IMG/VR virus record: IMGVR_UViG_3300029438_000229 | Location: 1-64,000 of that record | Length of the DNA stretch: 64,000 nucleotides | Source: a virus | Direction: 5' to 3' (one strand) | In this document: positions 23,799-62,643 of the stretch, piece by piece | Layout of the letters: every line of letters starts with the position of its first letter | Numbering within the stretch: the first letter of the stretch is position 1 | Position numbers and translations under genes: made by a program | The notes under the pieces: generated by a model | The model's input: only the letters and a program-made list of their open reading frames with translations | Told to the model about the DNA's origin: nothing | Databases searched by the model: none

Positions 23799-23827
23799 AA
23801 AAAAAGGAGCTGCCCGAAGGCAACTCC
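23799..23827 (-). terminator. Intrinsic terminator
   Basis: GGAGTTGCC-ttcg-GGCAGCTCC followed by TTTTTTT (minus strand). Confidence 0.7.
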
Positions 23828-23862
23828 CTGTCATACATAAATTTGCTGTAGCAAAAGCGAAC

Positions 23863-24366: not shown

Positions 24367-24389
24367 CGTTCACATTCTCCTTTTTAATT

Positions 24390-25195: not shown

Positions 25196-25226
25196 GATAC
25201 AAACTCCTTTAAGTGTTTTGGATGCG

Positions 25227-25364: not shown

Positions 25365-25474
25365 GTAAAAAATGTTGCTCATTCGAAGGCGAGTGGTGAA
25401 GAGTGTAATTTTAGATGTGGAGAACAGTCCACTCACTCCTTATTCTGTAATGTGTAATTGTAGCGTAGATTTCT

Positions 25475-25516
25475 AAAAAAAGCCGCCCACCAAATTATGT
25501 TGTGGGCGGTTTTTTT
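25475..25516 (-). terminator. Intrinsic terminator (A-run and T-run on both sides)
   Basis: CCGCCCAC-aacataatttg-GTGGGCGG followed by CTTTTTTT (minus strand). Confidence 0.65.
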
Positions 25517-25520
25517 GTTG

Positions 25521-26543: not shown

Positions 26544-26581
26544 AATTTCTTCCTTTCTATTTTTGGGGTATTTATTATTTT

Positions 26582-27334: not shown

Positions 27335-27361
27335 TTTACCTTTTCTCCTTTCCTCGGATTA

Positions 27362-27673
27362 TCAGTTCCCATCCACAAGACTCTCGTCGTGGTTGACAAC
27401 AGCATCTATCTCCGGAGTTGCGACCTTCAAAAGACCATAACCCGCAAAGAACGAATCAGGAATGTCATACACATCGCCCCAGTCAAAGCAACCGAAGTTG
27501 TCGTCAAGTGCCTTTTTGCCGTCTTCGGTTTTTAGGTAATCCCCGACGGCGCGGCGCACCTGTGTGAGAACATCAGATACCTGTTCATGGTCATACTTGA
27601 ATTGCAAAATGGTCGTTCCTGAGTTGTGCAGACCAAAATACTCTCTGACGGCGATAGTAAAAATCTTTTCCAT
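27362..27673 (-). CDS. Hypothetical protein (103 aa)
   Basis: AAAAGGAGCG upstream of the ATG at 27673. First gene after cassette H. Confidence 0.6.
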   Translation of the reverse strand: MEKIFTIAVREYFGLHNSGTTILQFKYDHEQVSDVLTQVRRAVGDYLKTEDGKKALDDNFGCFDWGDVYDIPDSFFAGYGLLKVATPEIDAVVNHDESLVDGN

Positions 27674-27703
27674 GTTATTACGCTCCTTTTTGTTATTGGA
27701 CAC

Positions 27704-27841
27704 AAAAAAGGCGGGCTTCTCATCTGAGAAGTCCGCCCTTTAAGCGAAATTGTGAATTGTACGAAAGGCATAAAACCCTTTCGATATGGGATGTTATCTA
27801 TCGTACAATACCCATTCTATTCAGTTCGCACATTTTGGCAA
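27704..27841 (-). promoter_or_regulatory. Promoter-leader-terminator cassette, copy H
   Basis: TTGCCA (27836-27841), 16-nt spacer with GCGAA, TAGAAT (27814-27819). Then ATTGTACGATAGATAAC, hairpin GAAAGG/CCTTTC, TCGTACAATTCACAATTTCGCTTAAAGG. Ends with hairpin GGGCGGACTTCTC/GAGAAGCCCGCC (27710-27738) plus TTTTTTG. Confidence 0.75.
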
Positions 27842-27842
27842 G

Positions 27843-27874
27843 AAAAAATCACCACCTACTTGCATAGGCGGCGA
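27843..27874 (-). terminator. Intrinsic terminator abutting the -35 of cassette H
   Basis: CGCCGCCTA-tgcaag-TAGGTGGTG (with G-U pairs) followed by ATTTTTTC (minus strand). Confidence 0.55.
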
Positions 27875-28022
27875 CTGATTTACTTGCTATCGTTTTAGTA
27901 CCTTATTGGGGTTTTCCGTTTCCGAATCAGCCAAGGCGCGTTCCTGAACCCAGTTCGTCCAGAGCGGGACATTTCGTGTACTACTCAAATAGGCTTATAT
28001 GGATTGGATGCTGATTGGATAT

Positions 28023-29171
28023 TTATGGCTTGCAGTATCCACAAGGCGTATATCCCTGTTTGATAAGTTCCTCTCTTGTGCCGGTGTACTTCTCTCTATT
28101 TGCATCGCTTATCTGAGATGCAGAGGAGCAATCAGGGCGGTGGAACTTGCGAGAGTTCGTGTTCAGGATGTATGTCTCGGAAATTGTGTCAGGCTGCTGT
28201 GGTTCTTCCACCTCGGTGCCAGAGACATCAACATCCTTGTGGTATTCCCCATACGAGAAGGTGACTTCCGTACCGTCAGAGGTGCAGTAAATATCACCGA
28301 GTTCGTCCGTTCTGAACACCTCAACTCCCGCGCTGGCCAGCTTTGCGAGGGTTTCGCTGTGCGGGTGTCCGTAGCTGTTGTCCTTGCCGCAGGATATGAC
28401 CGCATAAGTAGGGCTCACAGCATCCAGAAATGCCTGAGAGGTGGAGGTACTGGACCCGTGATGCCCGACCTTTAAGACGGTGGATTCGATGTCTTGTTCG
28501 GATTCGAGTATCTTCTCTTCTGTTTCCTGTTCGGCATCACCGGTGAACAGGAAAGATGTATCTCCGTAGACAATGCGAATTACAATGGAAGTATTGTTCG
28601 TGTCCTCAGGCACGGAATTGACGGCCACAACGGTGACGGTGGCTTCCCCTAGGGTGAATGTATCCCCAACTGCCGGGACGGTAATGCCACCGCCTCTCTC
28701 GTCCGCACGAGCCTTAAAGTTCCGGAATGCCTTGCTGTCATATTCTGTCACAGGACAGAATGTGACATCGGCTGTGTCAGCCTCGAAAGCACCCGAAAGA
28801 CCTCCGATGTGGTCTTCGTGGGCGTGTGTTCCTACGACATAGTCTAAGTGTCCCTCTGTCTCGCGCTGTAATACTGAGTATACAAGGTTCGAGTCATCGG
28901 CATTGCCGCCGTCAATGAGCATCGAGTGCCCATCGCAGGTGACGAGGGCGGAATCTGCCTGCCCGACATCGATAAAGTGGATGGTAAAGCTGCCGCCTTC
29001 CGATACGCCAGCCGTCTCCTGACCGCTTTGTGCGGTAGTTTCTGAGACGACCCCGGATACAGGAAGGCTTCCCGGAGATTCCGGTGTCTGACCGCAGCCT
29101 GTGAATGTCAGTGTGAAGAACGCGGCAATTACCGCTGCAGTTCTCCGAAGAAATTCGTGTTTGGTTTGCAT
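28023..29171 (-). CDS. Secreted ComEC/Rec2-type metallo-beta-lactamase-fold hydrolase with C-terminal Ada-like Zn domain
   Basis: Lipobox signal (FTGCGQ). MBL motifs HFIDVGQADS, HAHEDHIGG and VGHHGS. C-terminal KFHRPDC....CGYC. Confidence 0.85.
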   Translation of the reverse strand: MQTKHEFLRRTAAVIAAFFTLTFTGCGQTPESPGSLPVSGVVSETTAQSGQETAGVSEGGSFTIHFIDVGQADSALVTCDGHSMLIDGGNADDSNLVYSVLQRETEGHLDYVVGTHAHEDHIGGLSGAFEADTADVTFCPVTEYDSKAFRNFKARADERGGGITVPAVGDTFTLGEATVTVVAVNSVPEDTNNTSIVIRIVYGDTSFLFTGDAEQETEEKILESEQDIESTVLKVGHHGSSTSTSQAFLDAVSPTYAVISCGKDNSYGHPHSETLAKLASAGVEVFRTDELGDIYCTSDGTEVTFSYGEYHKDVDVSGTEVEEPQQPDTISETYILNTNSRKFHRPDCSSASQISDANREKYTGTREELIKQGYTPCGYCKP

Positions 29172-29192
29172 GGGTTTTGTCTCCTTTCAAAT

Positions 29193-29310
29193 AAAAAAAG
29201 CGGGCCCATCCCCCGAAAGGGATAAGTCCGCTAAAAACGAAATTGTGAATTGTAAGATATCTGGTATCTATCGTACAATTCTATTCTACCGGTATCGCAA
29301 GAACATGCAA
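29193..29310 (-). promoter_or_regulatory. Promoter-leader-terminator cassette, copy I (short leader)
   Basis: TTGCAT (29305-29310), 16-nt spacer with GCGAT, TAGAAT (29283-29288). Then ATTGTACGATAGATACC..TTACAATTCACAATTTCG. Ends with hairpin GCGGACTTATCCC/GGGATGGGCCCGC (29200-29231) plus T-run. Confidence 0.7.
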
Positions 29311-29313
29311 CAC

Positions 29314-29544
29314 TCAAACCGTATCCGAAACCTCATGACACAGCATCCTGTCCGCATAAATACAGCAGAGAACCAAGCCAAGGCTCGCAACGCAGCCGAA
29401 CGCGACATGTTTCGGGGAAAGAAGGAGCCATTCGATGTCGTTCATTACTTTCACCCAAAACAAAACGCCCATCATAGCAATGATGAGCGGAATAAAGACA
29501 GTTCCTGTGTAATGCAGGAATTTTCGGATTTTTCTTTTTTGCAT
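29314..29544 (-). CDS. Small membrane protein (76 aa)
   Basis: ATG at 29544 just after the sortase stop. Two hydrophobic helices. Confidence 0.4.
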   Translation of the reverse strand: MQKRKIRKFLHYTGTVFIPLIIAMMGVLFWVKVMNDIEWLLLSPKHVAFGCVASLGLVLCCIYADRMLCHEVSDTV

Positions 29545-35270: not shown

Positions 35271-35310
35271 ACAAAAAGACCCTGACAGCTATCACAACAG
35301 CCATCAGGGT
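35271..35310 (-). terminator. Leader terminator between promoter 35334-35361 and the helicase gene
   Basis: ACCCTGATGGCTGT-tgtgat-AGCTGTCAGGGT followed by CTTTTTGTT (minus strand). Confidence 0.55.
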
Positions 35311-35333: not shown

Positions 35334-35361
35334 ATTGTATGCAGTTCGCACAAATGTGCAA
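35334..35361 (-). promoter_or_regulatory. GCGAA-spacer promoter
   Basis: TTGCAC-atttgtGCGAActgca-TACAAT with a 16-nt spacer. Confidence 0.65.
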
Positions 35362-35456
35362 GGGGCTGTTGATAAAAATCGCTGTTTGTATATTTTATTT
35401 TATGTGCTAACCGCTAGCAGAAAGGGGATTAGAGGAGCATGGGTGATGTAGTGTCC

Positions 35457-35885
35457 CTATACCAACTCGATAGATTCCGCCTCGATACGATGCCATTTAT
35501 CGGTGCTTGCATCGTATTCCAGCACATCTTTTCCGACCATTTCCCCGTTTTCGATATACTCTAAAATGTGTCGGACCCGCATTTGCGGATTATCGTTCCT
35601 CGCGTGCCACAACGCGATATCCTTGTTGTCGATGACGAACGCATGTTTATAGCTGACAAAGGGGCTACCGAGAGGCTGCGTTTGTCTACTTGCCTCGTAG
35701 TATGATTTCACATAGCCATCACGGGAAGTGTTGCGAATAGCGCGGGCACCTTCCTTGTCGCCTTGCTCGTCCAAGGTTTGTGCAATTTCGTCCACACACC
35801 GACAAAAATGCGTGGGGTCTTGACTGTATTTGGCAAAAATCAGTTTTCTGATTAACCGCATTGTGTCTTGCTGCGTCACAAGCAT
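35457..35885 (-). CDS. Hypothetical protein (142 aa)
   Basis: ATG at 35885 after GAAGGGAG, which is short spacing. Confidence 0.5.
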   Translation of the reverse strand: MLVTQQDTMRLIRKLIFAKYSQDPTHFCRCVDEIAQTLDEQGDKEGARAIRNTSRDGYVKSYYEASRQTQPLGSPFVSYKHAFVIDNKDIALWHARNDNPQMRVRHILEYIENGEMVGKDVLEYDASTDKWHRIEAESIELV

Positions 35886-35892
35886 GCTCCCT

Positions 35893-36228
35893 TCACTTTT
35901 CTGTCGAAACCAAAAAGATTTTCTTAGAGAAAGTTCCCTTCTCTGCTGCTTTCTGGCTCCGTACCTGTTCAATTTCTCGTTTGGAAACAGCGCAAGTCTT
36001 GCCCATAGCGTACATGACCTCCATCACATCTGCCATTTCTTCCGCGCAGTCAAGAGCACTCCGCTCCTTGGCAGTGTAGGCTTCCAGCAATTCGGCGACC
36101 TCTTCCTGCAGTTTGTTCATCAGAGCGTCCTCGTACTCTTTGTCAGACAGCGTGCGCGTAACACAGGTCTCCCCGTTCTTCTCAATGATAGCCGGGATAT
36201 TATCTCGGACAAGTTTCTGGTACATCAT
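35893..36228 (-). CDS. MazG-like all-alpha NTP pyrophosphohydrolase
   Basis: KLVRDNIPAIIEKNG...KLQEEVAELLE...EEMADVMEV...KAAEKGTFSKKIFL. GGAAGGAG upstream of the ATG at 36228. Confidence 0.8.
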   Translation of the reverse strand: MMYQKLVRDNIPAIIEKNGETCVTRTLSDKEYEDALMNKLQEEVAELLEAYTAKERSALDCAEEMADVMEVMYAMGKTCAVSKREIEQVRSQKAAEKGTFSKKIFLVSTEK

Positions 36229-36232
36229 GGCT

Positions 36233-36649
36233 TTATGCTCCTTCCAATTTACAGTGCCGCAGCGGTATGCGCAGCTCACGACAGGTGTTTTCGATTTCTC
36301 GTTCGTTTTCGGCTCCATCAAACACTACACATCCTTTTTGCTGCTGTTTGGCGAGGTATGTGGACAAATCATCGTTTGTGACGGGAATGAAAGAGTATCC
36401 CCGCTCGCTGGCGTACATAGCCGCCAAAGCAGCCATCTTCTTACCAGATTCTGCTGCAATGACGACCTTTTCCCGTTTTGCCAGCATCTTATCGATGCAC
36501 TCTGACATTTGCTTGCGGGACTTCGTCATCGATAACGGCGTTCCCGCAACTCCGCAAAAGAACCAATCCTTTTCGCAGATTTTGTCCTCACACTCTTGGC
36601 ATTTTAGGTAGACGACATTGCCGTTTGTATACGGACAATAATTCCCCAT
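36233..36649 (-). CDS. Hypothetical protein with N-terminal Cys cluster (138 aa)
   Basis: CPYT..CQEC..C motifs. ATG at 36649. Confidence 0.5.
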   Translation of the reverse strand: MGNYCPYTNGNVVYLKCQECEDKICEKDWFFCGVAGTPLSMTKSRKQMSECIDKMLAKREKVVIAAESGKKMAALAAMYASERGYSFIPVTNDDLSTYLAKQQQKGCVVFDGAENEREIENTCRELRIPLRHCKLEGA

Positions 36650-38887: not shown

Positions 38888-38936
38888 ATTATACCATGAA
38901 GTTGTATTGAATACAACGATGAACGCTATATGTTCA
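38888..38936 (-). promoter_or_regulatory. Consensus-type promoter without the GCGAA spacer motif, with upstream inverted repeat
   Basis: TTGTAT-17 nt-TATAAT (38888-38916) and inverted repeat TGAAC-atatagc-GTTCA (38920-36). Confidence 0.5.
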
Positions 38937-38975: not shown

Positions 38976-39012
38976 AAAAAGAAAAGACCCGCCTGTTAGC
39001 CGCAGGCAGGTC
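38976..39012 (-). terminator. Intrinsic terminator
   Basis: GACCTGCCTG-cggctaa-CAGGCGGGTC followed by TTTTCTTTTT (minus strand). Confidence 0.65.
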
Positions 39013-39199
39013 TTTCTTCGCAGTGAGCGTTTAAGGTCGGCTCAGGACCCTATTCGTCTCTACCGAAGCAACGTCATCAACGCTGTTCAGTATGTTTTAT
39101 TGTATGCCAGTCGCACGGGTCGTCAACTATGTTTTGCAGCGACACAGCAAAAAAGGAGTCTCACCCGCTGATGCAGGCAAGACTCCTAATTGGCTCAGC

Positions 39200-39563: not shown

Positions 39564-39591
39564 ATTCTAGGCCGTTCGCATAGCTGGTCAA
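39564..39591 (-). promoter_or_regulatory. GCGAA-spacer promoter
   Basis: TTGACC-agctatGCGAAcggcc-TAGAAT with a 16-nt spacer. Confidence 0.65.
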
Positions 39592-39692: not shown

Positions 39693-40157
39693 TTAGTCAT
39701 GAGGATGTTCGTGGCAGGGTTCAGGCGGCATACCATGCGGGTCAGGCTCAGGGAAGCGGCCATGGTCCCCGATGATTTCCGAAGTACGGATACCGTTCGC
39801 TTTCCGACATGCCTCGATGGTCTTAGAAAGCACTTCCTTGACATCACGCGGATTCTTGATGCGGCGGATGTCGATTTCCGGTGTCATAGCATCCGTAGAG
39901 CAGAGATGGATGCTGCCGACACGGCAAAGGCGCTCATAAAAGTTCTGCTTGAACGCGATGTCCCGGACGCGGTACAGCTGAATCTCATCCTCGCGCAGGT
40001 TAAAGCAGCCACGCTGGATGATGAGTTTGGTCTCGGTCAGGGTGTACTTTGTAAATGACAGTGGCAGAGAAAAGATGGTGTGGCGTTTGCGGTCGGTCCA
40101 GAGAATCTTCTCCTTGTCCAAGTCGATGCCGAACTCGCCGTTTTTGAGGGTGGACAT
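39693..40157 (-). CDS. Bacterial PH-domain (bPH_2/YdbT-like) protein
   Basis: ..KYTLTETKLIIQRG.....EIQLYRVRDIAFKQNFYERLCRVGSIHL.. AAAGGAG upstream of the ATG. Confidence 0.6.
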   Translation of the reverse strand: MSTLKNGEFGIDLDKEKILWTDRKRHTIFSLPLSFTKYTLTETKLIIQRGCFNLREDEIQLYRVRDIAFKQNFYERLCRVGSIHLCSTDAMTPEIDIRRIKNPRDVKEVLSKTIEACRKANGIRTSEIIGDHGRFPEPDPHGMPPEPCHEHPHD

Positions 40158-40316
40158 GGTATGGCTCCTTTCGTTATGGGATTTGTTTGGGTTGTTGGTA
40201 TTTATTAGTTGGTACTGAGATGATTTGAATTATTAACATTATACCATTTGTTTTTGCAATTTTCAATTGTACAAGAGATGGCACAAGGAATTTTCGTTTG
40301 TTCTTATGTTTTTTAT

Positions 40317-41054
40317 TTACATGTTATCTTTATTATCAAAATAATCTGTCACCTTTTTCAAGCTCTCTATACTGGCTACGGTAGAATAAATTTTGTATCC
40401 ATAAGTTTTGTAATCTTGTGGAGCCGGATAGTCAAGCTGTATAAAATTTCCAACTCCTTCGAAAATTGCATAGCAAATAATAGGAATCCCAATTTCAATC
40501 AGCATGTGTTTGTTATCAATTATCTTTCCAGATGCGTTTGAAATCGTCAGTTTGAAATCGTATCCACTTGTTGTATTTTCATGCAAAATTTTATTTCTTA
40601 GATAGTAACATTTTTCCCCAGTAAATCCGTTGTCTGCGAGTGCTTTTCCATCCGGACCACCATTCTCTATTACATATTCATCAAACCATTTTTCATATCG
40701 ATTTCTTACCTCAGTTTTGCCAAAATGGGCATATGCGATTGCTCCACATGTATCGGGCAACGTAAGTGCCAGCTGTAATGCTGCCCCATAAAGACCGAAT
40801 TCCAAGCATAGATGTGCTTCCTTTGCTTTGGCGGCAATCGTATAATAAGTGTACCCATCCGGGCAGTCCAAGCCTGTAATACGCTCTTGACTTTTCAGTT
40901 CATTATAAAACGCATATTCGTTTGGTGCGAAGGGTCCATTTTTGTTTTCGCAGTACATTTCATGATTAACTCTTTGTAACTTTTCGTAGTATTCCGTACA
41001 TATCACGAAGATTCCATCTTTTGTCAATCCCATCCTTTTATCTTTCCCGTCCAT
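40317..41054 (-). CDS. HEPN/DUF4145-like protein (possible Abi-type effector)
   Basis: 245 aa in a visibly AT-rich stretch. Carries an Rx4H motif in the context YYLRNKILHEN. Confidence 0.45.
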   Translation of the reverse strand: MDGKDKRMGLTKDGIFVICTEYYEKLQRVNHEMYCENKNGPFAPNEYAFYNELKSQERITGLDCPDGYTYYTIAAKAKEAHLCLEFGLYGAALQLALTLPDTCGAIAYAHFGKTEVRNRYEKWFDEYVIENGGPDGKALADNGFTGEKCYYLRNKILHENTTSGYDFKLTISNASGKIIDNKHMLIEIGIPIICYAIFEGVGNFIQLDYPAPQDYKTYGYKIYSTVASIESLKKVTDYFDNKDNM

Positions 41055-41081
41055 CTTAGAACCCCCTATCTATATTAAACC

Positions 41082-41178
41082 AAAAACCTCCCACCGCAGT
41101 CAGCATGCTACTGATTACGATGGGAGGCTCAAACCTTTTGTGATAGTCTTATTATACCACGCTTCGTGAATTACTCAA
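41082..41178 (-). promoter_or_regulatory. Promoter plus leader terminator in front of the HEPN-like gene
   Basis: TTGAGT-aattcaCGAAGcgtgg-TATAAT (41151-41178, 16-nt spacer). Then hairpin CCTCCCA...TGGGAGG plus TTTTTGG (41082-41127), then the start codon. Confidence 0.5.
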
Positions 41179-41381
41179 GACCAATCTCAATAATTCAGTC
41201 AATATCCAAGTTGTCAAATTCTTTGTGAGGACGAAGATGCTCTGGACGGATGTATTGGGGTTGGTTCAGGACATCTGTCTCGGCGTTGAGTGCTGATAAG
41301 GACTGCTATAGTTTTTGGGGTGATGGTGGTTACGATGTCATGGTGAGCGCTTGTTACGGTTTTGTTCGTTACTGTGGCATA

Positions 41382-41501
41382 TCAATCGTCGTCATCATCA
41401 TTCTTATCATAGCCACTGCACTCTTCACGATGTTCGCAAAAATCGCAACAGCAATCATCTGTAAACTCACCGGTTTCCCAGCATAAGTCGGTAGGATACA
41501 T
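41382..41501 (-). CDS. Small Cys/Asp-rich protein (39 aa), below the ORF-track cutoff
   Basis: GAAAGGAGG upstream of the ATG. Sequence MYPTDLCWETGEFTDDCCCDFCEHREECSGYDKNDDDDD. Confidence 0.35.
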   Translation of the reverse strand: MYPTDLCWETGEFTDDCCCDFCEHREECSGYDKNDDDDD

Positions 41502-41756
41502 TACAAGACCTCCTTTCACATATCTCTAATTTTTCTCTTCTGATTTGCTCACAAGTTTTTTCGCGACAGATATTCTTCCAATTTTAGATAATCCATAGTT
41601 ATTATACACCATTTCTGTCCTTTTCAAAATGGTTTAGTATATTCTTAGCTTTCTCCTTCACCTTCCTCATATATTCTTCCATATACACCCAGTCAGGCTG
41701 ACCGGTCTTGTCTATGGGAAGCATAATTCTTGCAACATAAAAACAACATCGGTATG

Positions 41757-42893
41757 TCAATTATCCGACTTCACCGCATTGCACTTTTTGCACAGCATCT
41801 GCAGGTTGTTGTCGGTGGTATGCCCGCCCTTGCTCCAAGGAATGATGTGGTCGCCTTCCATATCCTTAAAGGCGTACTCGGTGTTGATGCCATTTGCAAC
41901 GCACAAGGGACACTTGTGACCTTGCCGCTCATAGGCGCGGAGTTTCTGCGACTCAGTGAATGCGCGAAGGGACAGGTGCTTCTCATCGCGCCAAGTACGG
42001 TCAGAGAGGATAAACGGGATGATGCCTGCCTTCTTGGTTACGTCATCATCCAGCACGAGTTTCTTGATGTCAGCTTCCAGAGCGTTGCTGTTGTACTGCT
42101 TTGCATGATACTTGTTGTAGAGCAGTCCCCATGCCTGTGCATCCGTAATTCCCTTCCGTTTCGTCGGGAACAACATCTTCGCCCAGTTGATGACAGACTG
42201 GAAGTAAAGCCAGAGGTCATTGGCATCCTCGTCATGCTGGTGAACCGCCATGTACATCTGCCCGGATTCCAGACCGTCACGGTCAGCAATCCATGCCAGT
42301 GCTTTTTCCAGCAACTCCTGCCGAATCGGGTTGCCTTTCAGGTATCCGTCCGCCATCTTCGCAGCAACGCAGTTGCGTTTCGAAAAGTAGTTTTTGGCAT
42401 CAGCCAGCCACGGTCCTGTGTATGTAGCGTTCAGAAGCTCCTGCGGAGTCAGAACTTCGCCAGCAATGTTAATGCGCTTGAACCATTCCAATTTCTCGGC
42501 TTCAGTGCCTTCGCAGACATAGACCGTCAGCTCATAGTCCAGAATTGCCTGCTTTTCCTCGTTGGTCAAGTTTTGGAAGAACTTGTCGTTGCCATTGATT
42601 TTGATAGGAAAATCCTTGTTAATGTACTGGGCAATAGAGACGGTACGCTGCTGCCCATCAAGAACCTCGTATGTGTCAGCCCCGGTCTTAGACCAGTACA
42701 TGACATTCAGCGGAAATCCGTTCATTACGGAATCGATGACGGCTGCACGCTGCTTCTCCCCGTAAATAAACTCACGCTGGAAGGATGGGCGAATCGTAAG
42801 ACGGTCATTGTAGCCAAAGACACCGCCATCGCCATTATCCTTGTAGTTTTCGACAAGGTCAGATACCTTGATTTTCGTTTCTGTGATTTTCAT
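41757..42893 (-). CDS. DUF262 (ParB-like) + HNH nuclease, GmrSD-like type IV restriction-type architecture
   Basis: N-terminal FQREFIYGEKQR...YEVLDGQQR. C-terminal HNH DHIIPWSKGGHTTDNNLQMLCKKCN. ATGA overlap with the upstream gene. Confidence 0.85.
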   Translation of the reverse strand: MKITETKIKVSDLVENYKDNGDGGVFGYNDRLTIRPSFQREFIYGEKQRAAVIDSVMNGFPLNVMYWSKTGADTYEVLDGQQRTVSIAQYINKDFPIKINGNDKFFQNLTNEEKQAILDYELTVYVCEGTEAEKLEWFKRINIAGEVLTPQELLNATYTGPWLADAKNYFSKRNCVAAKMADGYLKGNPIRQELLEKALAWIADRDGLESGQMYMAVHQHDEDANDLWLYFQSVINWAKMLFPTKRKGITDAQAWGLLYNKYHAKQYNSNALEADIKKLVLDDDVTKKAGIIPFILSDRTWRDEKHLSLRAFTESQKLRAYERQGHKCPLCVANGINTEYAFKDMEGDHIIPWSKGGHTTDNNLQMLCKKCNAVKSDN

Positions 42894-43648
42894 AGTTGTT
42901 TACGACCTTTCTTCTTTTGAGGCGTACACTCTTTTTTAATCTGCTTACGGAGCTTAGCCTCTTGTTGCTCTCGTAATTTCCGTAATGCATCTGACGGTGC
43001 AGCTGTATCCGGTTTTACATCGCCGCCATCCTGATACCACCCGGCAGAATCATGCATTATATCGACGATATATGTTTGACACTCCCCGCCGATACTTTGT
43101 TCTGCGTGATATTGGAATACATCGATGTTCTCAAGAAGGCACCCACGAGTTAATGAAATAGCGTTAGCGAGCGAAAGATTCTTATAGTCGATTCCGGAAT
43201 TCATTATGGCGTGTGCAACATCAGTAATACCGTTATATGAGGCTCCATAAGAGCCAATTTCTGTTGATAAAACAATAGATGATTTGGCAGTGTCGATAGT
43301 GTAAGTACAAGCCATTCTCCCAAATTCTAAATACCCACTAATCTTAAATATTGTGCAGCCGTTACCATTGACGCGGAAGTATTCATTCAATATTTTTAAC
43401 GGCAAATCATCAATGGTGGCTTGCTTCCCATATTTTTTACGTATATCATATAAGAATTGCATTACGGTCAGGTTTTCTCTTACTTTTGCATCGCCACAAT
43501 GGCTTACAACGATACGATTTGGAAAAGGTACTATTTTTTCGGCAGTGTCATCGTATTGAACATGCCCTTTACCATCCCTGCGAGTAGTGCGCGTATCAGC
43601 GCAGACAACAATGCCTTCAGGAACAATAGTATGTATAATCAGTGACAT
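42890..43648 (-). CDS. Proteasome-beta/HslV-like Ntn-hydrolase-fold protein
   Basis: MSLIIH-TIVPEGIVVCADTRTT..., EKIVPF.NRIVVSHCGDA, ..YGASYNG... and ..SIGGECQTYIVD follow the order of proteasome beta-subunit motifs. The start lies 1 nt after the methyltransferase stop. Confidence 0.55.
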   Translation of the reverse strand: MSLIIHTIVPEGIVVCADTRTTRRDGKGHVQYDDTAEKIVPFPNRIVVSHCGDAKVRENLTVMQFLYDIRKKYGKQATIDDLPLKILNEYFRVNGNGCTIFKISGYLEFGRMACTYTIDTAKSSIVLSTEIGSYGASYNGITDVAHAIMNSGIDYKNLSLANAISLTRGCLLENIDVFQYHAEQSIGGECQTYIVDIMHDSAGWYQDGGDVKPDTAAPSDALRKLREQQEAKLRKQIKKECTPQKKKGRKQL

Positions 43649-43649
43649 A

Positions 43650-44693
43650 TCACGCCTCGGCTTTCTTTTGAATGAAAATCCGCTGATAAACCGAATGTAA
43701 GTATTTTCCGTGCTTACTAACACTGTAATCGCATTTACCTTTACCCGGAATTTTTGGGGACATTTTATCTCTCAATGCGCCGGACCCAGAAGGCGAAACT
43801 CCGTCAGTCTTCAAAAATGTGTATTCGCCGTCAGGATAATACACTTCAATTCGGCAAGGCGTATCATCGAACATGGAACCACCAACAATCTCAAACTCAT
43901 CCGGGTTATACTTATCCAGAAATGTGATAGGTACGCCCATAACACCCTTGTAATCCACCGGGATATCCGCAACCCTGTCTACATTGATGGCATCGTAGTT
44001 ATCGTAGTGGGGGTAGCGCTCCTCCGCATCCGGCAAAGGATTCCCGTCATCGTCATAGTACCGCTGCCAGAGAATCAGCTTTTCGTGGCGCTTCTGGATA
44101 TCGAGGTTGGTATACCACAATTTATTCCCGAATTTTTTGATTGTCCCGTCAGGTTGTACGAATTCTTTTACAGAAGAATATCCAAGCCAGACTTCATTGT
44201 TCTTTAGCATCGGGAAAATTTCTTTGTAAGTAATCCAGTTGAGGTCTCCGATGATAACAAATTGCTTGCCATGCTCGCGTAAACACTGGACATAAGCCCT
44301 TGCAAGGGAAAAGGGCGGATTCGTTACCACAATATCGCTCTCATCCAGCAAGTCGAGACATTCCTTGTTTCGGAAATCGCCGTTACCTTCCAGCGGGGTC
44401 TTAACTCCGACTTCCACATTGTTGTCGTCCCCACCCTCGTATTCCATCTTGTAGGTGGGCTCGGTGCGGTCGTAGTGTGTGGAAATCAGCTTCTTTAAGC
44501 CGAGCTCAGCGAAGTTCAGGTGGAAATACCGCCAGAAAGCAGACCAAGTGGGGTCGTCACAGTTACAGAATACAACCTTGCCCGCAAAATGCTTTTTGTA
44601 GTGCCGCAGTTCCTCCGCGACATCCTCGATTCTGGTATAGAACTCGTCGTTCTTAGCGTCTTTCGCTTTATGCAAATTATCGTTCTTTGCCAT
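43650..44693 (-). CDS. N6-adenine DNA methyltransferase (EcoRI-methylase-like family)
   Basis: N-terminal KNDEFYT and catalytic VVTNPPF. GGAGGA upstream of the ATG at 44693. Confidence 0.85.
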   Translation of the reverse strand: MAKNDNLHKAKDAKNDEFYTRIEDVAEELRHYKKHFAGKVVFCNCDDPTWSAFWRYFHLNFAELGLKKLISTHYDRTEPTYKMEYEGGDDNNVEVGVKTPLEGNGDFRNKECLDLLDESDIVVTNPPFSLARAYVQCLREHGKQFVIIGDLNWITYKEIFPMLKNNEVWLGYSSVKEFVQPDGTIKKFGNKLWYTNLDIQKRHEKLILWQRYYDDDGNPLPDAEERYPHYDNYDAINVDRVADIPVDYKGVMGVPITFLDKYNPDEFEIVGGSMFDDTPCRIEVYYPDGEYTFLKTDGVSPSGSGALRDKMSPKIPGKGKCDYSVSKHGKYLHSVYQRIFIQKKAEA

Positions 44694-49896: not shown

Positions 49897-49986
49897 AGAA
49901 AAATCAAGCCGCAGAGAACAAATCCCTGCGGCTTATACTAAATCACTTTATATTCTCCATTGTATCCAATTCGCACGAATGTGCAA
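49897..49986 (-). promoter_or_regulatory. GCGAA-spacer promoter plus leader terminator
   Basis: TTGCAC-attcgtGCGAAttgga-TACAAT (49959-49986). Then hairpin AAGCCGCAG..CTGCGGCTT plus GATTTTTC (49897-49934). Confidence 0.6.
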
Positions 49987-50202: not shown

Positions 50203-50268
50203 TTGCAATTCCACCAGCGTTCCCGTATAATAGTTACAGAATGATACACAAAGCTACAAAATGATACA
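50203..50268 (+). promoter_or_regulatory. Plus-strand consensus promoter with two operator-like direct repeats
   Basis: TTGCAA-17 nt-TATAAT (50203-50231). Then ACAGAATGATACA (50236-48) and ACAAAATGATACA (50256-68) with 20-nt periodicity, then AAAGGAG and the ATG at 50287. Confidence 0.65.
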
Positions 50269-50286: not shown

Positions 50287-52164
50287 ATGTTCTCTGTCAA
50301 GCTGAACGCCCCTGTCCTGCTTCGCAAGCAGCTGCCGGTGATTGCCAAGGCATTGCATGTTGATGAGAAGGTCCTTGACGATTTTCTATCCGTTTCGGCT
50401 TTCTATGGCGTTAAAGATGGCAAAGGAACAATTGTCCCTATAAAGAAAACGGATACCGTTGTCCATATCGATTATAAGGCATATGATAGCTACTATTTTG
50501 TTGTCGAAGCTATCCTGCAATACGCTAAAGACATCGATGCCTCTGTTACTCTACCTGTCATCACTGAAATCGAACTCGGTACAGATGTTTTCAAAAAGAT
50601 GGCTCCTGACCAGCTTTCAGATATTGTATATCTGGCAAAACTGCTCCGCGACAGCAACGGCCGCATTCCAAGGCTAAAAGAGTTGAATGCGCCGTACATT
50701 CTTGTTGCCAGCGAGTGCGCACACCTGTGCAAAAAGGTGGAGTGCCTTGAAGACAACGCACACATGCCGTCCCCCTCCAAAGACTTAGACGGACATGTAT
50801 ATGCTTCCTTGCATGATATCGGTTATTCGATTCTTGACGGCTGGCTGAACAAGGATGACAGTTCCGAGTATAATGATAAGGAGAATGCGGGATATGACCC
50901 CGATAAGCTGGCGGCGCTCGTCAAGAAAGCCATCGGTACGCGGACACAGGAGCAGTTTTCCCAGACATCGCATCTCGGCCGCGTATATGTGAACCGTCTT
51001 GCGAACGGCAAAACACAGTCTCAGCCTACCGAGGTTACCTTGAAGAAAATCGCCAAGGCAACGGATGCCGTGACAGAAAACGAGCTTCGTCAGGCATGCG
51101 GTTATGAGCCGCTTCCGGGTGAGGATGTCGTGGAGTCTAAGAAACGCATCGAAACCGTGGACGACTACACATGGATTCACGAGAACGTCAATTATTTCCT
51201 TGAATTCTTGAAAGCGCAGATTCCGATGGCGTTGCCGCTGTATAATCTCGTCATCCTCGAGAATCAGTACATGAGCATCCACAAGGACGGCTATGACCTT
51301 TTCGGTATTCATCGCTGCTCGGCTCCCGTCGAGTATTCTGAGGACGGTATTGTTGCGAATGTCATTTACCCCGTTACTTTCGATTTGACAAATTTTCAGC
51401 GTGGCATCCGCCTTTCTGTGGCCGTCGGGCTCTTGGGTCATTACAGCAAAAACAATGAGCTGTACATTACCGACTACATCACCGATGTCGATGCACTGTA
51501 CAAGTATGCACCCTTCTTGCGCAAGGCTATCGACAAAGTAGGAGAGAATTTCAGGGAAAGCGGTGTAGATATTCAAGACTTCCCTGTTTTTTACTATACT
51601 ATAAACCTGAAGAAGGCATTTACAGCAAAGCATGTCTTTGCGAAAATGGAGAAGTTCCTGACCAGTCTTGTGAAAGTTCGTGTGGATGCACTCGGATTCT
51701 ATGCTGACAACCTGAGCGACGAGACCTTCATCAAGTTCCTTAAAAACCATAAGAAGGTCATGACGAACGAGTACGCCGACAACGAAATCAAGGATTTCTA
51801 CGAGAATGTTGTTGTACGGCATGGCGACATCGAGGACTTCTTTGCGGAGAACTCGGACTATAACAGTAAAGCCGCTATCGTCGCCTATGTCATCCAGAAT
51901 GAGGCTTCGGACGATACCCCCCGCCGTCTGGTAGACGGATTCACCTTTGACGATGACGACAAGGAAGATAGACCCTGTGTTGCCGCCTCGAAGCGGAAAA
52001 TCGAAGCATGGCAGAAAGAGCATCCCGGTAATGGCTTTAACCTGAAAGTGTTCTCTGACACTCTGAAAAAGTATGCCGATGAGTTGGGCTTAGAGTTCGG
52101 TGACGTATACTACTATCTGGTTGTCGAGGATGACAAGGCTGACGAGATGGGCGTTCGCGTCTAA
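50287..52164 (+). CDS. Large protein with internal XRE-type helix-turn-helix (625 aa); the only sizeable plus-strand gene
   Basis: AAAGGAG upstream of the ATG. HTH-like segment ..KKAIGTRTQEQFSQTSHLGRVYVNRLANGKTQ..TLKKIAKA. Terminator at 52205-52244. Confidence 0.75.
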   Translation: MFSVKLNAPVLLRKQLPVIAKALHVDEKVLDDFLSVSAFYGVKDGKGTIVPIKKTDTVVHIDYKAYDSYYFVVEAILQYAKDIDASVTLPVITEIELGTDVFKKMAPDQLSDIVYLAKLLRDSNGRIPRLKELNAPYILVASECAHLCKKVECLEDNAHMPSPSKDLDGHVYASLHDIGYSILDGWLNKDDSSEYNDKENAGYDPDKLAALVKKAIGTRTQEQFSQTSHLGRVYVNRLANGKTQSQPTEVTLKKIAKATDAVTENELRQACGYEPLPGEDVVESKKRIETVDDYTWIHENVNYFLEFLKAQIPMALPLYNLVILENQYMSIHKDGYDLFGIHRCSAPVEYSEDGIVANVIYPVTFDLTNFQRGIRLSVAVGLLGHYSKNNELYITDYITDVDALYKYAPFLRKAIDKVGENFRESGVDIQDFPVFYYTINLKKAFTAKHVFAKMEKFLTSLVKVRVDALGFYADNLSDETFIKFLKNHKKVMTNEYADNEIKDFYENVVVRHGDIEDFFAENSDYNSKAAIVAYVIQNEASDDTPRRLVDGFTFDDDDKEDRPCVAASKRKIEAWQKEHPGNGFNLKVFSDTLKKYADELGLEFGDVYYYLVVEDDKADEMGVRV

Positions 52165-52244: not shown

Positions 52245-52482
52245 CCGTTCTGAACATGCATTATCCCGCACTGGCATCCGCACCGGGGGCCTTTCTGCTG
52301 GGGTTCCGGTGAGTACCCTGCTTGCTGGCGGCAGGCGGCAAGTAGTGCCGGTGCTCTGTGGGCCCTGCGAAAATTCGGGCAAAAAGAAAACGAGAACTGC
52401 GCCATTAGCGGAGTCCTCGCAAAAGATAATTCTTTTTGATTACAGGGTTAGTATACCTCGAGCCGCACGGATGTGCAAGAGG

Positions 52483-53265: not shown

Positions 53266-53396
53266 AAAAAAAGAGCAGACGCACCACTGGGGTGAATCTG
53301 CTCTTCTTCGTCAGAATGTGAATTGTACGGAAGTCGTTTATTATGCTGCTATCTATCGTACAATTATAAGTGTATGCTATTCGCACAGCCTGGCAA
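53266..53396 (-). promoter_or_regulatory. Promoter-leader-terminator cassette, copy J
   Basis: TTGCCA (53391-96), 16-nt spacer with GCGAA, TACACT (53369-74). Then ATTGTACGATAGATAGC...CCGTACAATTCACATTC. Ends with hairpin AGAGCAGA..TCTGCTCT (53272-53304) plus T-run. Confidence 0.7.
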
Positions 53397-54728: not shown

Positions 54729-54756
54729 ATAGTACGCAATTCGCACGAATGGGCAA
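54729..54756 (-). promoter_or_regulatory. GCGAA-spacer promoter
   Basis: TTGCCC-attcgtGCGAAttgcg-TACTAT with a 16-nt spacer. Confidence 0.6.
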
Positions 54757-57314: not shown

Positions 57315-57342
57315 ATTGTATGCAATTCGCACGGCTGTGCAA
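57315..57342 (-). promoter_or_regulatory. GCGAA-spacer promoter with a ~340-nt leader
   Basis: TTGCAC-agccgtGCGAAttgca-TACAAT with a 16-nt spacer. Confidence 0.65.
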
Positions 57343-59014: not shown

Positions 59015-59133
59015 AGGGCACTTCCTCCTTCCGTCTCAAAGACAATTTGCCGGGACTGTTTCCCGTTGCCCGCTGCTCGCCGCGTGGAGGCTGTCTTTTG
59101 GAACAGCTGCGCGGACAAAACCGCGCTTTTGAG

Positions 59134-60828
59134 TTACATCTCTGCATTGAACAGATTGCGGAGCTTATAGGTAATATCCTCGCTGTTACCGACGATAGCT
59201 GCCGCCTCGTTGATGGAAGCGAGCTCCGAAAGACTATCCGCTGCGTAGTTGTAGCTGATGGTGTAAATGGGGATATCCATACCGGCAATGATGTTCTTCG
59301 TATCGGAGAAGTCATATCCGGTATTGTTGTCACCGTCCGTGAGCACAAAGATGATGGGCGTGCAATTCCCACCCAGTTCCTGAGATTTCTGGTAGATGCG
59401 GTCCATTGCCACACAAAGACCGTTGTACATCGCTGTGCTGCCGTTTGCATCGAGGGAGTTCACAGCACCCTTGTACAGGGTTTTCTGGGTCAGGGAGAAC
59501 TGGTCGATGGGCAGGTATTCCCTGACATCCGAATCAAAGCCAATAATGCCAATATAGTTGTCGTCATTGATATACTGGATGGTGTTTATCATCGCGGTTT
59601 TCAGGGCATTCAGGGGTTCGCCGCGCATCGAGCCTGAAGTATCGACAACGAACTCCGCCACGATAGGAATACCGGAATCTTTCTCTTCTTTCCAGACACT
59701 TTGAGCCTGTGCGATGGTGTTGCCGTCATATACCTTGCCAGTATAAGCATAGTCATCGAGGCCATTGAACCCGTCCTTCGTTGCCTCGGCCTGGTTCTGA
59801 GCGCAGAAGGAAACGAAGGCAGCAATAACTTCCTTCTTCTCCGCAGAGACATTCCCGATGGAATACAGAGGATTATCGTGCCGGACACCGAACGGGATGA
59901 ACTCGTAGTTGCGCTGTAATGTCGGGTCATTCTGGTAGGACTGATACTCCATCACGACACCGTCCACGATGCCCTTGTCTGCCGACTGGACCATCTGCTG
60001 GGTCGTGAAGGATACGAGCGGCACGTTCGCCTGAAATTTCTGGAAATTCTCAACAGCAGCCGTATCGACAATCGTGTCGCTGCCGCTGCTTGCAAGGGCC
60101 GCAAGAAGGAAGTTGAGACCCGTTGCACTCGTATAAGGGTTCGAGTATCCCATCATGAGTTTGCCATCGATGGTTGCGTTCAGAACGGAAGAAACAGACG
60201 CTTCACCGTATTCAGAGCGGAGCATATCCCCTGTCTTCTTCGATACGAGAATACCCGCCACATTGCCGGCCAGACGGTCAGCCTCAACGGTCAACTCTAC
60301 GCCCTCGTTCTTCACCAGTTCGCCAAAGAGCGTGTTTGAAGGTGTATAGCACTCAGGCTGATACTTTCCCGTCGAGATGTACTCAGCTGCCGTACCGGAC
60401 GGAACGGAGCGCAGAGAGACGCTCATAGTCTTGTCTCCGGAAGTCTTATTGTGCTGGGCGTTGAACTTCTTTGCCATGCTGGTCAGGAAAGAATCAGAAC
60501 CGGATTCTGCTGCTTTCTCGCCGGAAGAGAAGATTTCAATGTTGACATCACCGTTCCCCTCTACCACAAACGGGTAGGAGGAGTCGATATCCGGCAACTC
60601 ATCTTTTGCATCCAGAAATTCGGACACATCGAGCTGCTGCGGATTGACGGATACTTCCTGTACCCCGATGCGTTTCATTTTTCCGCTCAAATCCGCATAC
60701 GCCTGTTCTGTCGTCATGGTATTGGTGCTGATATTCGAGTCCCGCATCACCGTCTGGGAGAACACCGCCAATACTACGCCGACGACCGCCAAGGTCGCCA
60801 CTATCGGGAACACACCTTTTCTTGCCAT
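59134..60828 (-). CDS. Membrane-anchored extracellular protein with C-terminal von Willebrand factor A domain
   Basis: N-terminal TM helix. MIDAS VVDTSGSM....FVLTDGDNN. GGAGG 9 nt upstream of the ATG at 60828. Confidence 0.8.
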   Translation of the reverse strand: MARKGVFPIVATLAVVGVVLAVFSQTVMRDSNISTNTMTTEQAYADLSGKMKRIGVQEVSVNPQQLDVSEFLDAKDELPDIDSSYPFVVEGNGDVNIEIFSSGEKAAESGSDSFLTSMAKKFNAQHNKTSGDKTMSVSLRSVPSGTAAEYISTGKYQPECYTPSNTLFGELVKNEGVELTVEADRLAGNVAGILVSKKTGDMLRSEYGEASVSSVLNATIDGKLMMGYSNPYTSATGLNFLLAALASSGSDTIVDTAAVENFQKFQANVPLVSFTTQQMVQSADKGIVDGVVMEYQSYQNDPTLQRNYEFIPFGVRHDNPLYSIGNVSAEKKEVIAAFVSFCAQNQAEATKDGFNGLDDYAYTGKVYDGNTIAQAQSVWKEEKDSGIPIVAEFVVDTSGSMRGEPLNALKTAMINTIQYINDDNYIGIIGFDSDVREYLPIDQFSLTQKTLYKGAVNSLDANGSTAMYNGLCVAMDRIYQKSQELGGNCTPIIFVLTDGDNNTGYDFSDTKNIIAGMDIPIYTISYNYAADSLSELASINEAAAIVGNSEDITYKLRNLFNAEM

Positions 60829-60830
60829 GG

Positions 60831-61631
60831 TCAATTACCTCCATTCAAAGTGTCATATCGTTTCAAAGCCTCTCGGCTGATTTCCTCGTCCTGTTCAAGG
60901 TCTTGATTCGTCTTAGTGATGACATCATCGAGTCTTGACATTGCCAGGACCACATCGGTATCCCACGGATTCTGTGCTGAGCGCTGATTGAGTGCATAGG
61001 CAAGAGAATCTAAGCGCAGGATAAGACGCTCATTATCATGGACCACATTGTTTATCGTCTTGATGATACCGGCGTATATCTCCTGCTTCTTTTTAGCGGT
61101 ATCGGTATCTCCGAACGAGATAATGCCTTGTTGGAAAGCTTTGTATTCTGTCTCATCGAACATCGATGCCGAGCGGATAGCGTCATCCAGCCGGTCATAG
61201 AATATTCGTTCTGCCGATGCCAACAGCGTTAGGCACTTCGCCTGCTCTCCAGAAGTCTTGCTGTCCTGTGTCATGCTGTATGCTACCGCCATCTTCTGCC
61301 CGAACCGCATGACCTGATACAGCATCTGGTCGGCATTGTCTGAGAACACGGCTTTCGTTTTTACGGTCGCGTTAATTTTCTCCGCATAGACTTCTTCTCG
61401 GTTTTCTGGCTTATCTTGCGCAGGCTTTTCCGATTCCCGCCGCTTCTCCCTGTATCTGAATACAAAGTACCCGCACAGGAGCAAAAACAGCACTGGTGCC
61501 GCGTATTTTGCCAGAAGCACAAAGAACAGCGGTGCGCCGTGCATATACTCAATCGCATAGTAGGTATGGATATACGCCTCGACCATATACACGGCAGCTG
61601 CTGCTATGATAAGTACGCATATACAAAACAT
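60831..61631 (-). CDS. Membrane protein with helical cytoplasmic domain (266 aa)
   Basis: Two N-terminal TM helices followed by a helical region. Confidence 0.6.
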   Translation of the reverse strand: MFCICVLIIAAAAVYMVEAYIHTYYAIEYMHGAPLFFVLLAKYAAPVLFLLLCGYFVFRYREKRRESEKPAQDKPENREEVYAEKINATVKTKAVFSDNADQMLYQVMRFGQKMAVAYSMTQDSKTSGEQAKCLTLLASAERIFYDRLDDAIRSASMFDETEYKAFQQGIISFGDTDTAKKKQEIYAGIIKTINNVVHDNERLILRLDSLAYALNQRSAQNPWDTDVVLAMSRLDDVITKTNQDLEQDEEISREALKRYDTLNGGN

Positions 61632-62615: not shown

Positions 62616-62643
62616 ATTATCTTCAATTCGCACAAATCGGCAA
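62616..62643 (-). promoter_or_regulatory. GCGAA-spacer promoter
   Basis: TTGCCG-atttgtGCGAAttgaa-GATAAT with a 16-nt spacer. Confidence 0.6.

Follow-up and report, generated by a model that had tools for sequence, protein, structure and literature searches.

A fixed-register TGCGA block within the spacer defines a promoter class in a human-gut jumbo phage family

We analyzed a 64,000-nt stretch of viral DNA (hereafter the window: positions 1-64,000 of the IMG/VR record IMGVR_UViG_3300029438_000229) that belongs to a family of tailed jumbo phages of the human gut. On its minus strand, which codes for ~85% of the window, promoter after promoter carries an invariant block, TGCGA, at one fixed place in a 16-nt spacer between the -35 and -10 hexamers, and most of these promoters lead into a strong terminator, often by way of a conserved, structured leader RNA. 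Our preferred but tentative interpretation is that TGCGAA is a third promoter element, read in a fixed register by a phage-specified factor coupled to the polymerase, and that it defines a private promoter class. From the sequence patterns described below we infer that the promoters are active, that the reader is a positively acting, polymerase-coupled protein and that the terminators are regulated.

The promoters carry an invariant block in a spacer of fixed length

The original prediction listed 19 minus-strand sites, all of which proved real: each has 16 nt between the hexamers, with (T/G)GCGA occupying positions 6-10 of that spacer. Searching the window with the pattern TTG-N8-TGCGA-N6-TA-N3-T, relaxed to allow at most one mismatch, gave 22 matches, 21 of them on the minus strand, as against 1.40 +/- 1.25 expected by chance from dinucleotide shuffles (none of 100 shuffles reached 22). 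Two of the sites, 1433-1460 and 39099-39126, were absent from the earlier list. A scan that specified only the hexamers (TTG[AC][CA]N, 14-20 nt, TANA[AC]T) found 24 minus-strand sites; 18 of these have a 16-nt spacer, and TGCGA occupies the same place in all but one of the 18. TGCGAA itself occurs 42 times on the minus strand (~18 of them inside promoters) and 29 times on the plus strand. It is thus at background level outside promoters, which implies that the block acts only within the promoter frame.

The same architecture extends across the family. In 966 kb of DNA (the window plus related loci), the hexamer-only scan returned 243 matches with a 16-nt spacer and only 10-40 for each other length, and GCGA stood at spacer positions 7-10 in 216 of the 243. 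To avoid circularity, we then derived the consensus from promoters anchored on the leader sequences downstream of them (described below) rather than on any promoter pattern. A -10 box lies 5-6 nt upstream of 207 of the 224 unique leaders; the leader RNA helix starts 6 nt downstream of the -10 at 186 sites and 5 nt at 20. In these 207 promoters TTG is found at -34 to -32 in 205, followed at -31 by C (154) or A (49), with positions 5 and 6 of the hexamer weak; the -10 hexamer reads T (202), A (207), any base, A (191), A (191), T (207). Between them, the block is conserved as T-23 (205), G-22 (199), C-21 (205), G-20 (205), A-19 (197) and A-18 (156), accompanied by a pyrimidine at -25 (201) and G-15 (165); -24 is never C and is T in 27% of sites. 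Spacer positions -30 to -26 and -17/-16 each carry at most 0.4 bit. The invariant core is therefore TGCGA at -23 to -19, plus A-18, the pyrimidine at -25 and G-15. This much of the consensus first proposed for the spacer stands, while its other letters (ATTCG...TTGCA) are not conserved.

The hexamers resemble the TTGACA and TATAAT of sigma-A/sigma-70 promoters. The spacer does not show the variable length of 17 +/- 1 bp typical of that class: it is 16 nt in 280 of 292 sites and contains five invariant bases. Nor is there an extended -10 (TGn), since T is found at -16 in only 36 of the 207 and -14 is mostly C. The register is equally strict on both sides of the block, TTGM-N7-TGCGA-N6-TAnAMT occurring at 280 unique sites versus 12 in all 48 neighboring registers combined. 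Just 5' of the -35, positions -41 to -36 are T-rich (T in 99-145 of the 207 sites); this stretch often coincides with the terminator U-tract of the operon before it and could also serve as an UP element.

Because the flanking spacer bases are randomized and TGCGA varies about as little as TTG and TA..T, the block reflects functional constraint rather than recent duplication, with selection acting on the blocks and their spacing. This bears directly on one explanation that needs no spacer read-out at all, namely that a mobile promoter-terminator cassette has been spread by recombination. The model would be the PeSLs, composite terminator/promoter repeats found in variable regions of T4-like phages (PMC4122927). 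In its favor, the units occur about every 3-5 kb and flank small gene modules, and the window differs in two places from the contig DYBQ01000017.1 (37 kb, 92-97% identical): it has a 1.15-kb insertion (35422-36574) directly upstream of the promoter at 35334-35361, and a segment at 40201-41076, around the gene at 40317-41054, has been replaced. Module exchange seems to end near promoter/terminator units, as it does with the PeSL cassettes. Recent copying would, however, have preserved the whole cassette, whereas what the 280 unique sites share is the blocks alone. Recombination may use these cassettes, but that would not explain block-only conservation, and we regard spread by copying as a very improbable source of the motif.

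The information content of the block (~11 bits) exceeds that of the -35 (~7 bits), a difference more in keeping with a sequence-specific reader than with passive effects of the spacer. As far as can be judged from conservation, the pattern is the signature of base-specific read-out rather than of DNA shape. The centers of the -35 and spacer blocks lie ~12 bp apart and those of the spacer block and the -10 ~11.5 bp apart, which would place all three on roughly one face of the helix.

The block is confined to this phage family

The original prediction also named what would overturn it: use of the same spacer motif by host promoters in general, making it a taxon-wide feature. Our scan took one genome per species from 185,579 species of bacteria and archaea (596 Gb in all) and used a stringent 36-bit form of the motif, which matches 26% of the phage sites and for which ~17 chance matches are expected. 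Of the 43 matches obtained, 15 fall on two contigs of a single metagenome-assembled genome (MAG), DYBQ01000001.1 (224 kb) and DYBQ01000017.1, both of which are this element, and two on fragments of a related element; the other 26 are singletons scattered across unrelated phyla. In this stringent scan, which was not directed at the true host itself, no species used the motif repeatedly outside contigs of this element, so the block is a feature of the phage family rather than of its hosts at large, and the refutation named above did not materialize.

The window also contains ordinary promoters without the block. Two motif-less promoters with 17-nt spacers are as first described: 38888-38916 on the minus strand (TTGTAT-17-TGG-TATAAT, host-type) and 50203-50231 on the plus strand, which serves the open reading frame (ORF) at 50287-52164. 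A third, at 40238-40266 (minus strand; TTGAAA-17-TATAAT), is a host-type promoter with an extended -10. The site at 41151-41178 (minus strand), previously taken for a shifted variant of the motif because it contains CGAAG, is more plausibly an ordinary promoter with an extended -10 (TTGAGT-16-TGG-TATAAT) in which CGAAG is probably there by chance. These promoters make up a second, host-type class beside the TGCGAA class. The sites at 40238-40266 (at its edge) and 41151-41178 belong to a stretch of lower G+C content (~40000-44000; 0.43 versus ~0.49 elsewhere) that also carries a gene matching GmrSD_N (probably 41757-42893). This stretch looks like horizontally acquired DNA that kept its host-type promoters.

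The same results weigh on the idea that the block is intrinsic to the unmodified host polymerase, a spacer element that makes exceptionally strong or fast promoters with no dedicated factor. At the position of the block, the spacer runs past the beta-prime zipper and zinc domain of the polymerase. In addition, sigma-70 R451 senses the spacer at -18 (PMC3130263; the matches to TGCGAA in that paper are primer tails), and T4 early promoters have "additional regions of consensus" beyond the -35, TGn and -10 (PMC2988021). Known effects of this kind are small and go with weak conservation, whereas here five adjacent bases are nearly as invariant as TTG and TA..T. Moreover, strong host promoters should then use the block, and yet no species in our scan repeats it outside this element and the host-type promoters of the window lack it. 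We consider such an element improbable.

A proposed reader coupled to the polymerase

The part of the original prediction that treated the spacer block as a functional, register-locked constraint holds up well. Its further step, to a dedicated DNA-binding factor, accords with our tentative reading, although the searches described below found no factor gene.

Five adjacent invariant bases nevertheless point to base-specific read-out by a protein domain, and the double register lock implies that this domain is geometrically coupled to the polymerase that holds the -35 and -10. Regions 3 and 4 of sigma-A reach -17 to -13 and -30 to -38, respectively; we know of no sigma-A domain placed at -23 to -18. 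We therefore picture a promoter class specific to the phage family in which TGCGA(A) at -23 to -18 is a third recognition block that cannot be dispensed with, laid out as TTGC(C/A) from -34, seven bases, TGCGAA and TAnAAT from -12. The initiation complex would read the three blocks jointly in one rigid register. It would consist of host sigma-A RNA polymerase that carries, or has been altered by, a phage-specified DNA-reading component making its contact around -21. This component could be a polymerase-docked adaptor or activator, or else a sigma factor with an extra DNA-reading module. The block would then single out the transcription units that belong to the phage, which number about one per 3 kb, from host-type promoters.

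Several observations weigh against this reading. No sigma, helix-turn-helix (HTH) or antiterminator family was found by Pfam among the 67 minus-strand ORFs of the window. Searches of 1.88 Mb of related loci (tblastn with regions 2 and 4 of sigma-70 and SigA, and regular expressions for DFDGD and a region-2 motif) found no sigma-70-like or RNA polymerase-like ORF, although these loci cover a fraction of the genomes, and proteins that are short or divergent would escape. Activator-dependent promoters usually have a poor hexamer; with the near-consensus hexamers seen here, host sigma-A polymerase should need no help. The earliest promoters would have to fire before any phage-made activator was present, unless it were injected or made by genes outside the window. 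Finally, the host is identified only to the level of MAG labels.

Some of these points are better accommodated if the block is instead an operator, bound by a global repressor of the phage or by a protein of early shut-off. The promoters would then be used by host sigma-A polymerase without help, and a phage or host protein bound to the polymerase-facing side of the spacer would silence all units, during carriage or at an early-to-late switch. With both hexamers strong, an activator would be superfluous, and the question of what activates the first promoters would not arise. Dispersed asymmetric operators are known from phage P1 (C1) and mycobacteriophage L5, and promoter-registered ones from plasmid RK2 (KorA). 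The block is likewise short and asymmetric, with a weakly pseudo-palindromic left half in some sites (ATTCG-TG-CGAAT), and the pyrimidine preference at -25 and the lack of C at -24 may also be seen in this light.

One protein is a possible candidate. The only regulator-type Pfam match among the window ORFs (sets of 67, 10 and 10) is an HTH_3 domain in the product of 50287-52164, the main plus-strand ORF, whose motif-less promoter (50203-50231) faces the palindromic TGCGAA promoter at 49959-49986. To go by its sequence, this protein is a possible regulator, but the HTH lies in the middle of 625 amino acids with no other Pfam domain and no match in a PDB sequence search. A repressor alone would also not require exact flanks of 7 and 6 nt, yet it is the flank lengths that are fixed (280 sites versus 12) while the flanking bases are random. 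There are no stand-alone copies outside promoters, and the window shows no integrase or partition gene. A repressor operator is accordingly unlikely in our view, though it deserves more weight than the other alternatives discussed here.

The block does not correspond to the binding sites of familiar regulators. The Spo0A box (TGNCGAA) has a base between TG and CGAA that TGCGAA cannot spare, and if the two are aligned on CGAA, the conserved G of the 0A box meets the invariant T. For the LexA (Cheo) box of Gram-positives, CGAAC-N4-GTTCG, only the left half has a counterpart (in 109 of the 207 promoters); the place of the right half is taken by TAGAA of the -10. The Rex site (TTGTGAA-N4-TTCACAA), the CcpA cre, the sigma-54 consensus (TGGCAC-N5-TTGC) and the consensus sequences of sporulation and extracytoplasmic function (ECF) sigma factors were also rejected on sequence. 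For sigma-E, CATACAAT resembles the -10 element, but both the invariant TTG and the spacing of 16 nt are in keeping with sigma-A. A literature search for the motif or the phage group returned nothing specific.

A three-way-junction leader RNA follows many of the promoters

The sequence TGTACGATAGATACC begins 6 nt after the -10 at 10 of the 21 minus-strand promoters, and matches to it number 13 in the window, with 0.9 expected. In related phages it is almost always preceded by a promoter of the three-block (tripartite) type. What follows has a constant order: a variable hairpin, CGTACAATTCACA, a linker, a strong intrinsic terminator, a ribosome-binding site and a start codon.

The leader is predicted to fold as a three-way junction flush with the predicted 5' end of the transcript. 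P1 (UGUACG/CGUACA) is paired in 99% of copies and P2 is UAGAU/AUCUA; P3 varies in sequence and shows compensatory changes in 4 of 4 pairs. In a structure-aware alignment of 90 distinct copies, 52 cells of P3 carried double changes, compared with 12.8 +/- 2.8 after shuffling (0 of 500 shuffles reached the observed number), and in slid controls the paired fraction fell from 94% to 19-55%. Two boxes, GAUAGAUACC and UUCACA, are invariant in sequence. We drew up the structure manually, tested it against counts of base pairs and used a covariance model to realign the copies; RNAalifold, run on a MAFFT alignment, returned no structure. Searches with the covariance model recover 195 copies from 922 kb of family DNA, and seven strong and two weak copies from the window. 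Many promoters scored as lacking a leader have diverged leaders that keep GATAGATACC and TTCACA.

A gathering-threshold scan of the whole window with Rfam (4227 covariance models) gave nothing on the leader, its only match being a ribozyme elsewhere (see below), and an E-value scan of 21900-29400 had no match on the leaders there. The inverted repeat of P1 often extends 5' of the predicted transcription start (AATTGTACG...CGTACAATT), for example at 22039-22044 with 21987-21995. Either transcription starts a few bases earlier than we have assumed or the DNA palindrome itself matters.

Terminators, a competing helix and direct units

Strong terminators stand before the first gene at 13 of the 21 promoters of the window. 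Among 118 unique promoters in loci retrieved by promoter pattern alone, 77 (65%) have one within 150 nt. Transcripts from 10 of the 13 terminator-bound promoters in the window pass first through the conserved leader, as do those from about half of the terminator-bound promoters of this class generally. The terminators have predicted energies of -15 to -26 kcal/mol, and a ribosome-binding site and ATG come 10-25 nt past the U-tract. The remaining third of promoters lead straight into genes, with short untranslated regions of 19-56 nt.

The linker directly after UUCACA can pair with the 5' arm of the terminator (for example, at 4929-4975, 21940-21986 and 27704-27750), and linker and arm covary, as in TTCGC/GCGGA, TCTGC/GCAGA and TCCGC/GTGGA. 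The duplex has an energy of -5.8 kcal/mol versus -2.9 for shuffled linkers, and 95 of 116 linkers beat their shuffled counterparts. The linker TTCGCA is the reverse complement of TGCGAA, but the idea that it pairs with the promoter block was dropped because other linkers (TCTGC, TCCGC) covary with the terminator arm instead. The linker-arm helix is a candidate anti-terminator helix, and a competing helix that covaries implies that the terminators are probably regulated. These units have the parts of an attenuator: a conserved, covarying fold followed by an intrinsic terminator with an alternative helix, all upstream of a ribosome-binding site.

The terminators raise the alternative that the block is a loading site for a Q-like antiterminator, which would bind the spacer, join a polymerase held by a sigma-dependent pause at TACGAT within TGTACGATAGATACC and carry it through the terminator ~60-130 nt downstream. 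A spacer DNA element with a proximal terminator is indeed the layout of lambda PR', terminators are as frequent as described above, and the -10-like TACGAT sits in the invariant start of the leader, 2-3 nt past the predicted transcription start. The block is, however, just as invariant at the direct, leaderless and terminator-free promoters as at the attenuated ones, so it belongs to the promoter and not to the leader system. Leader covariation and the competing helix argue for attenuation by RNA structure rather than for a processive factor loaded at the promoter, and Pfam found no Q-family protein among 77 window ORFs. A Q-like function for the block is therefore improbable.

If TGCGAA is instead the third element of a phage-specific promoter, the same promoter class would drive both an immediate set of genes, from the direct units, and a delayed set that requires terminator read-through. 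For the leader-terminator units, regulated read-through that yields delayed genes from the same promoters is the most likely function. Taken together, the arrangement of promoter and terminator suggests an undescribed, phage-specific system of transcription control. The fullest version of this picture, in which a protein that recognizes the mid-spacer box rides on host polymerase with -35/-10 recognition intact and ~50-nt three-way-junction leaders gate the terminators before most early operons genome-wide, is possible but doubtful.

Transcription units of the window

All features in this section are on the minus strand. Ten of the tripartite promoters feed a leader and terminator, and seven of the leaders are strong copies. 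The promoter at 112-139 (TTGCCA-N5-TGCGAG-N5-TAGAAT) opens the attenuator unit at 1-105 (leader 49-105, linker, terminator 1-36), and that at 5035-5062 the unit at 4929-5028 (leader 4976-5028, scoring 70 bits; linker; terminator 4929-4962), after which come a ribosome-binding site and the ATG at 4899. A leader scoring 74 bits belongs to the unit at 21940-22038 (promoter 22045-22072, leader 21987-22038, terminator 21940-21974, gene start 21916). Two similar units are 25227-25330 (promoter 25337-25364, leader 25275-25330, terminator 25227-25262, gene start 25195) and 27704-27807 (promoter 27814-27841, leader 27751-27807, terminator 27704-27737, gene start 27673). The leader is of a short form (29244-29277) in the unit at 29193-29277 (promoter 29283-29310, terminator 29193-29231, gene start 29171). 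The last of the seven is the unit at 53266-53362, with its promoter at 53369-53396, leader at 53317-53362, terminator at 53266-53303 and gene start at 53235.

The leaders of the other three units are weaker, diverged copies: 11514-11555, a weak match to the model, in the unit at 11462-11555 (promoter 11562-11589, terminator 11462-11498); ~16000-16049, beginning CGTACCAAAGATACC..., in the unit at 15938-16049 (promoter 16056-16083, terminator 15938-15971); and 17345-17398 in the unit at 17314-17398 (promoter 17405-17432, terminator 17314-17345).

Three promoters reach a terminator by another route. The one at 35334-35361 is followed by a different leader, a terminator at 35273-35310 and then the gene for a 934-amino acid helicase. 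The one at 49959-49986, whose spacer is palindromic (ATTCGTGCGAAT), is followed by a terminator at 49899-49935. The newly found promoter at 39099-39126 would give a ~110-nt non-coding RNA ending at the terminator at 38982-39012. This predicted transcript (38982-39126), a candidate small RNA gene, is conserved in five related contigs (L121, which is DYBQ01000017.1, and L173, L184, L231 and L233).

Six promoters lead directly into genes: 526-553 (gene start 487), the newly found 1433-1460 (start 1386), 23758-23785 (start 23732, encoding a DUF4176 protein), 39564-39591 (start 39520), 54729-54756 (start 54666) and 62616-62643 (start 62522), the last with GATAAT as its -10. Downstream of two more, no terminator was found: 57315-57342, the site singled out in the original prediction, and 13142-13169, which by eye has a sequence like a ribosome-binding site within ~10 nt of the -10 (our script called no gene start there). 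A variant promoter at 52450-52478 (TTGCAC-ATCCG-TGCGGC-TCGAGG-TATACT) has a 17-nt spacer and TGCGG in place of TGCGA, and is a rare off-register case.

The phage family and its hosts

The gene products of the window include an NAD-dependent ligase, a UvrD-like helicase, several DNA methylases, HNH nucleases, proteins matching GmrSD_N, esterases, a sortase and a von Willebrand factor type A (VWA) protein, and many match PHROG families; we saw no integrase or partition gene among the window ORFs. A megablast search with 24 kb of the window matched no cultured phage or plasmid, and a tblastn search with the 934-amino acid helicase matched no phage. The family is widespread: a protein identical to the ligase of the window is listed in 314 blocks of a public sequence collection, where the contigs reach 272,661 bp, and in IMG/VR the motifs recur in over 100 stretches, some from contigs as long as 389 kb. 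Large ORFs of the related loci encode a polymerase like Pol III-alpha, GroEL, an anaerobic ribonucleotide reductase, a topoisomerase, DnaB and major tail proteins. The hosts are probably Clostridia, given the AGGAG ribosome-binding sites, the intrinsic terminators, the MAG labels "Clostridiales" and "Peptococcaceae" and the presence of an HDV-F-prausnitzii ribozyme. This self-cleaving ribozyme of the hepatitis delta virus (HDV) type (Rfam RF02682; 57.2 bits against a gathering score of 44) lies at 59038-59107 on the minus strand, within an operon and directly downstream of the VWA-domain gene at 59134-60834.

Comparison with known systems

Phage-specific promoter classes allow large phages to time their program and to outcompete the host, and the known classes come from a few model phages of E. 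coli and Bacillus. Neither such classes nor antitermination by leaders is new in kind. An invariant mid-spacer box that leaves the -35 and -10 in place at a 16-bp spacing is, however, new to the literature we searched, and the pairing of that box with a three-way-junction leader is new both to that literature and to Rfam. What we describe is a promoter class defined by sequence in an uncultured phage family that is widespread in the human gut. It should be of practical use for annotating transcription units in genomes of the family, it lends itself to a simple test (comparing a 28-bp promoter that has the five bases with one that lacks them), and it comes with a candidate cis-regulatory RNA family of ~200 aligned copies. 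If the reader of the box does prove to be a polymerase-bound phage protein, it would represent a new mode of redirecting or appropriating host polymerase; if the leaders do gate early operons, they would form a new class of antitermination RNA.

The closest parallels for the promoters are in phage T4. Its early promoters are likewise numerous, have strong -35 and -10 hexamers, serve small units in a large phage and show extra family-specific positions (PMC2988021). They differ in having UP elements, TGn and weak additional consensus, whereas ours have no TGn, a spacer fixed at 16 nt and a five-base invariant block in its middle. T4 middle promoters (MotA/AsiA) resemble ours in placing a phage-specific box at a set distance from a normal -10, and even the cores are alike (TGCTT and TGCGA). 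The MotA box is read by a phage protein on host sigma, is centered at -30, 12 +/- 1 bp from the -10, and replaces the -35 (PMC2988021). It tolerates changes, whereas our block is invariant, occupies -23 to -18, lies 6 bp from the -10 and coexists with the -35 TTG, so these are not middle promoters of the T4 type.

The CII box of lambda (TTGC-N6-TTGC) has a partial counterpart here, since TTGC at -34 to -31 and (G/T)TGC at -24 to -21 form TTGC-N6-KTGC with the same 10-bp period. Compared with CII at PRE, the repeat is ~5 bp nearer the -10, its second copy runs into the invariant GA, and K is T in only 27% of sites; furthermore, CII-dependent promoters lack good hexamers and TGCGAA promoters have them.

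Short asymmetric motifs at many promoters of a large element are also typical of the operators of P1 C1, the L5 gp71 "stoperators" and the RK2 KorA sites. Those operators overlap the hexamers or vary in position and also occur away from promoters, whereas our block stands separate from the hexamers, is locked in a single register and is found only in promoters, with background frequency elsewhere. PeSL cassettes share with our units the repetition of terminator and promoter beside variable small genes and the indels that end near them, but in PeSLs the stem-loop precedes the promoter, while here leader and terminator follow it, inside the 5' untranslated region.

Lambda PR' combines an element between the -35 and -10 with an early -10-like sequence and a terminator that yields a short RNA unless antiterminated, and a conserved spacer element, as judged from the alignments, is present here too. 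There is one such promoter per genome in lambda, as opposed to dozens here, one third of them without a terminator. A Q-type system would be expected to have the pause element and terminator at every promoter, and we find them at 10-13 of 21, the other 8 being direct or terminator-free. The RNA covariation and competing helix, moreover, point here to an RNA-based mechanism.

For the leader, the helix that competes for the 5' arm of the terminator resembles control of the RAT type, and structured RNA between a promoter and a terminator is common to the BglG/LicT RAT, lambda nut and HK022 put (PMC9378689) systems. Our leaders differ from all of these in matching none of them in sequence or in Rfam, in forming a three-way junction at the 5' end, and in their number: the known leaders occur once or twice per genome, and ours about once per 5 kb.

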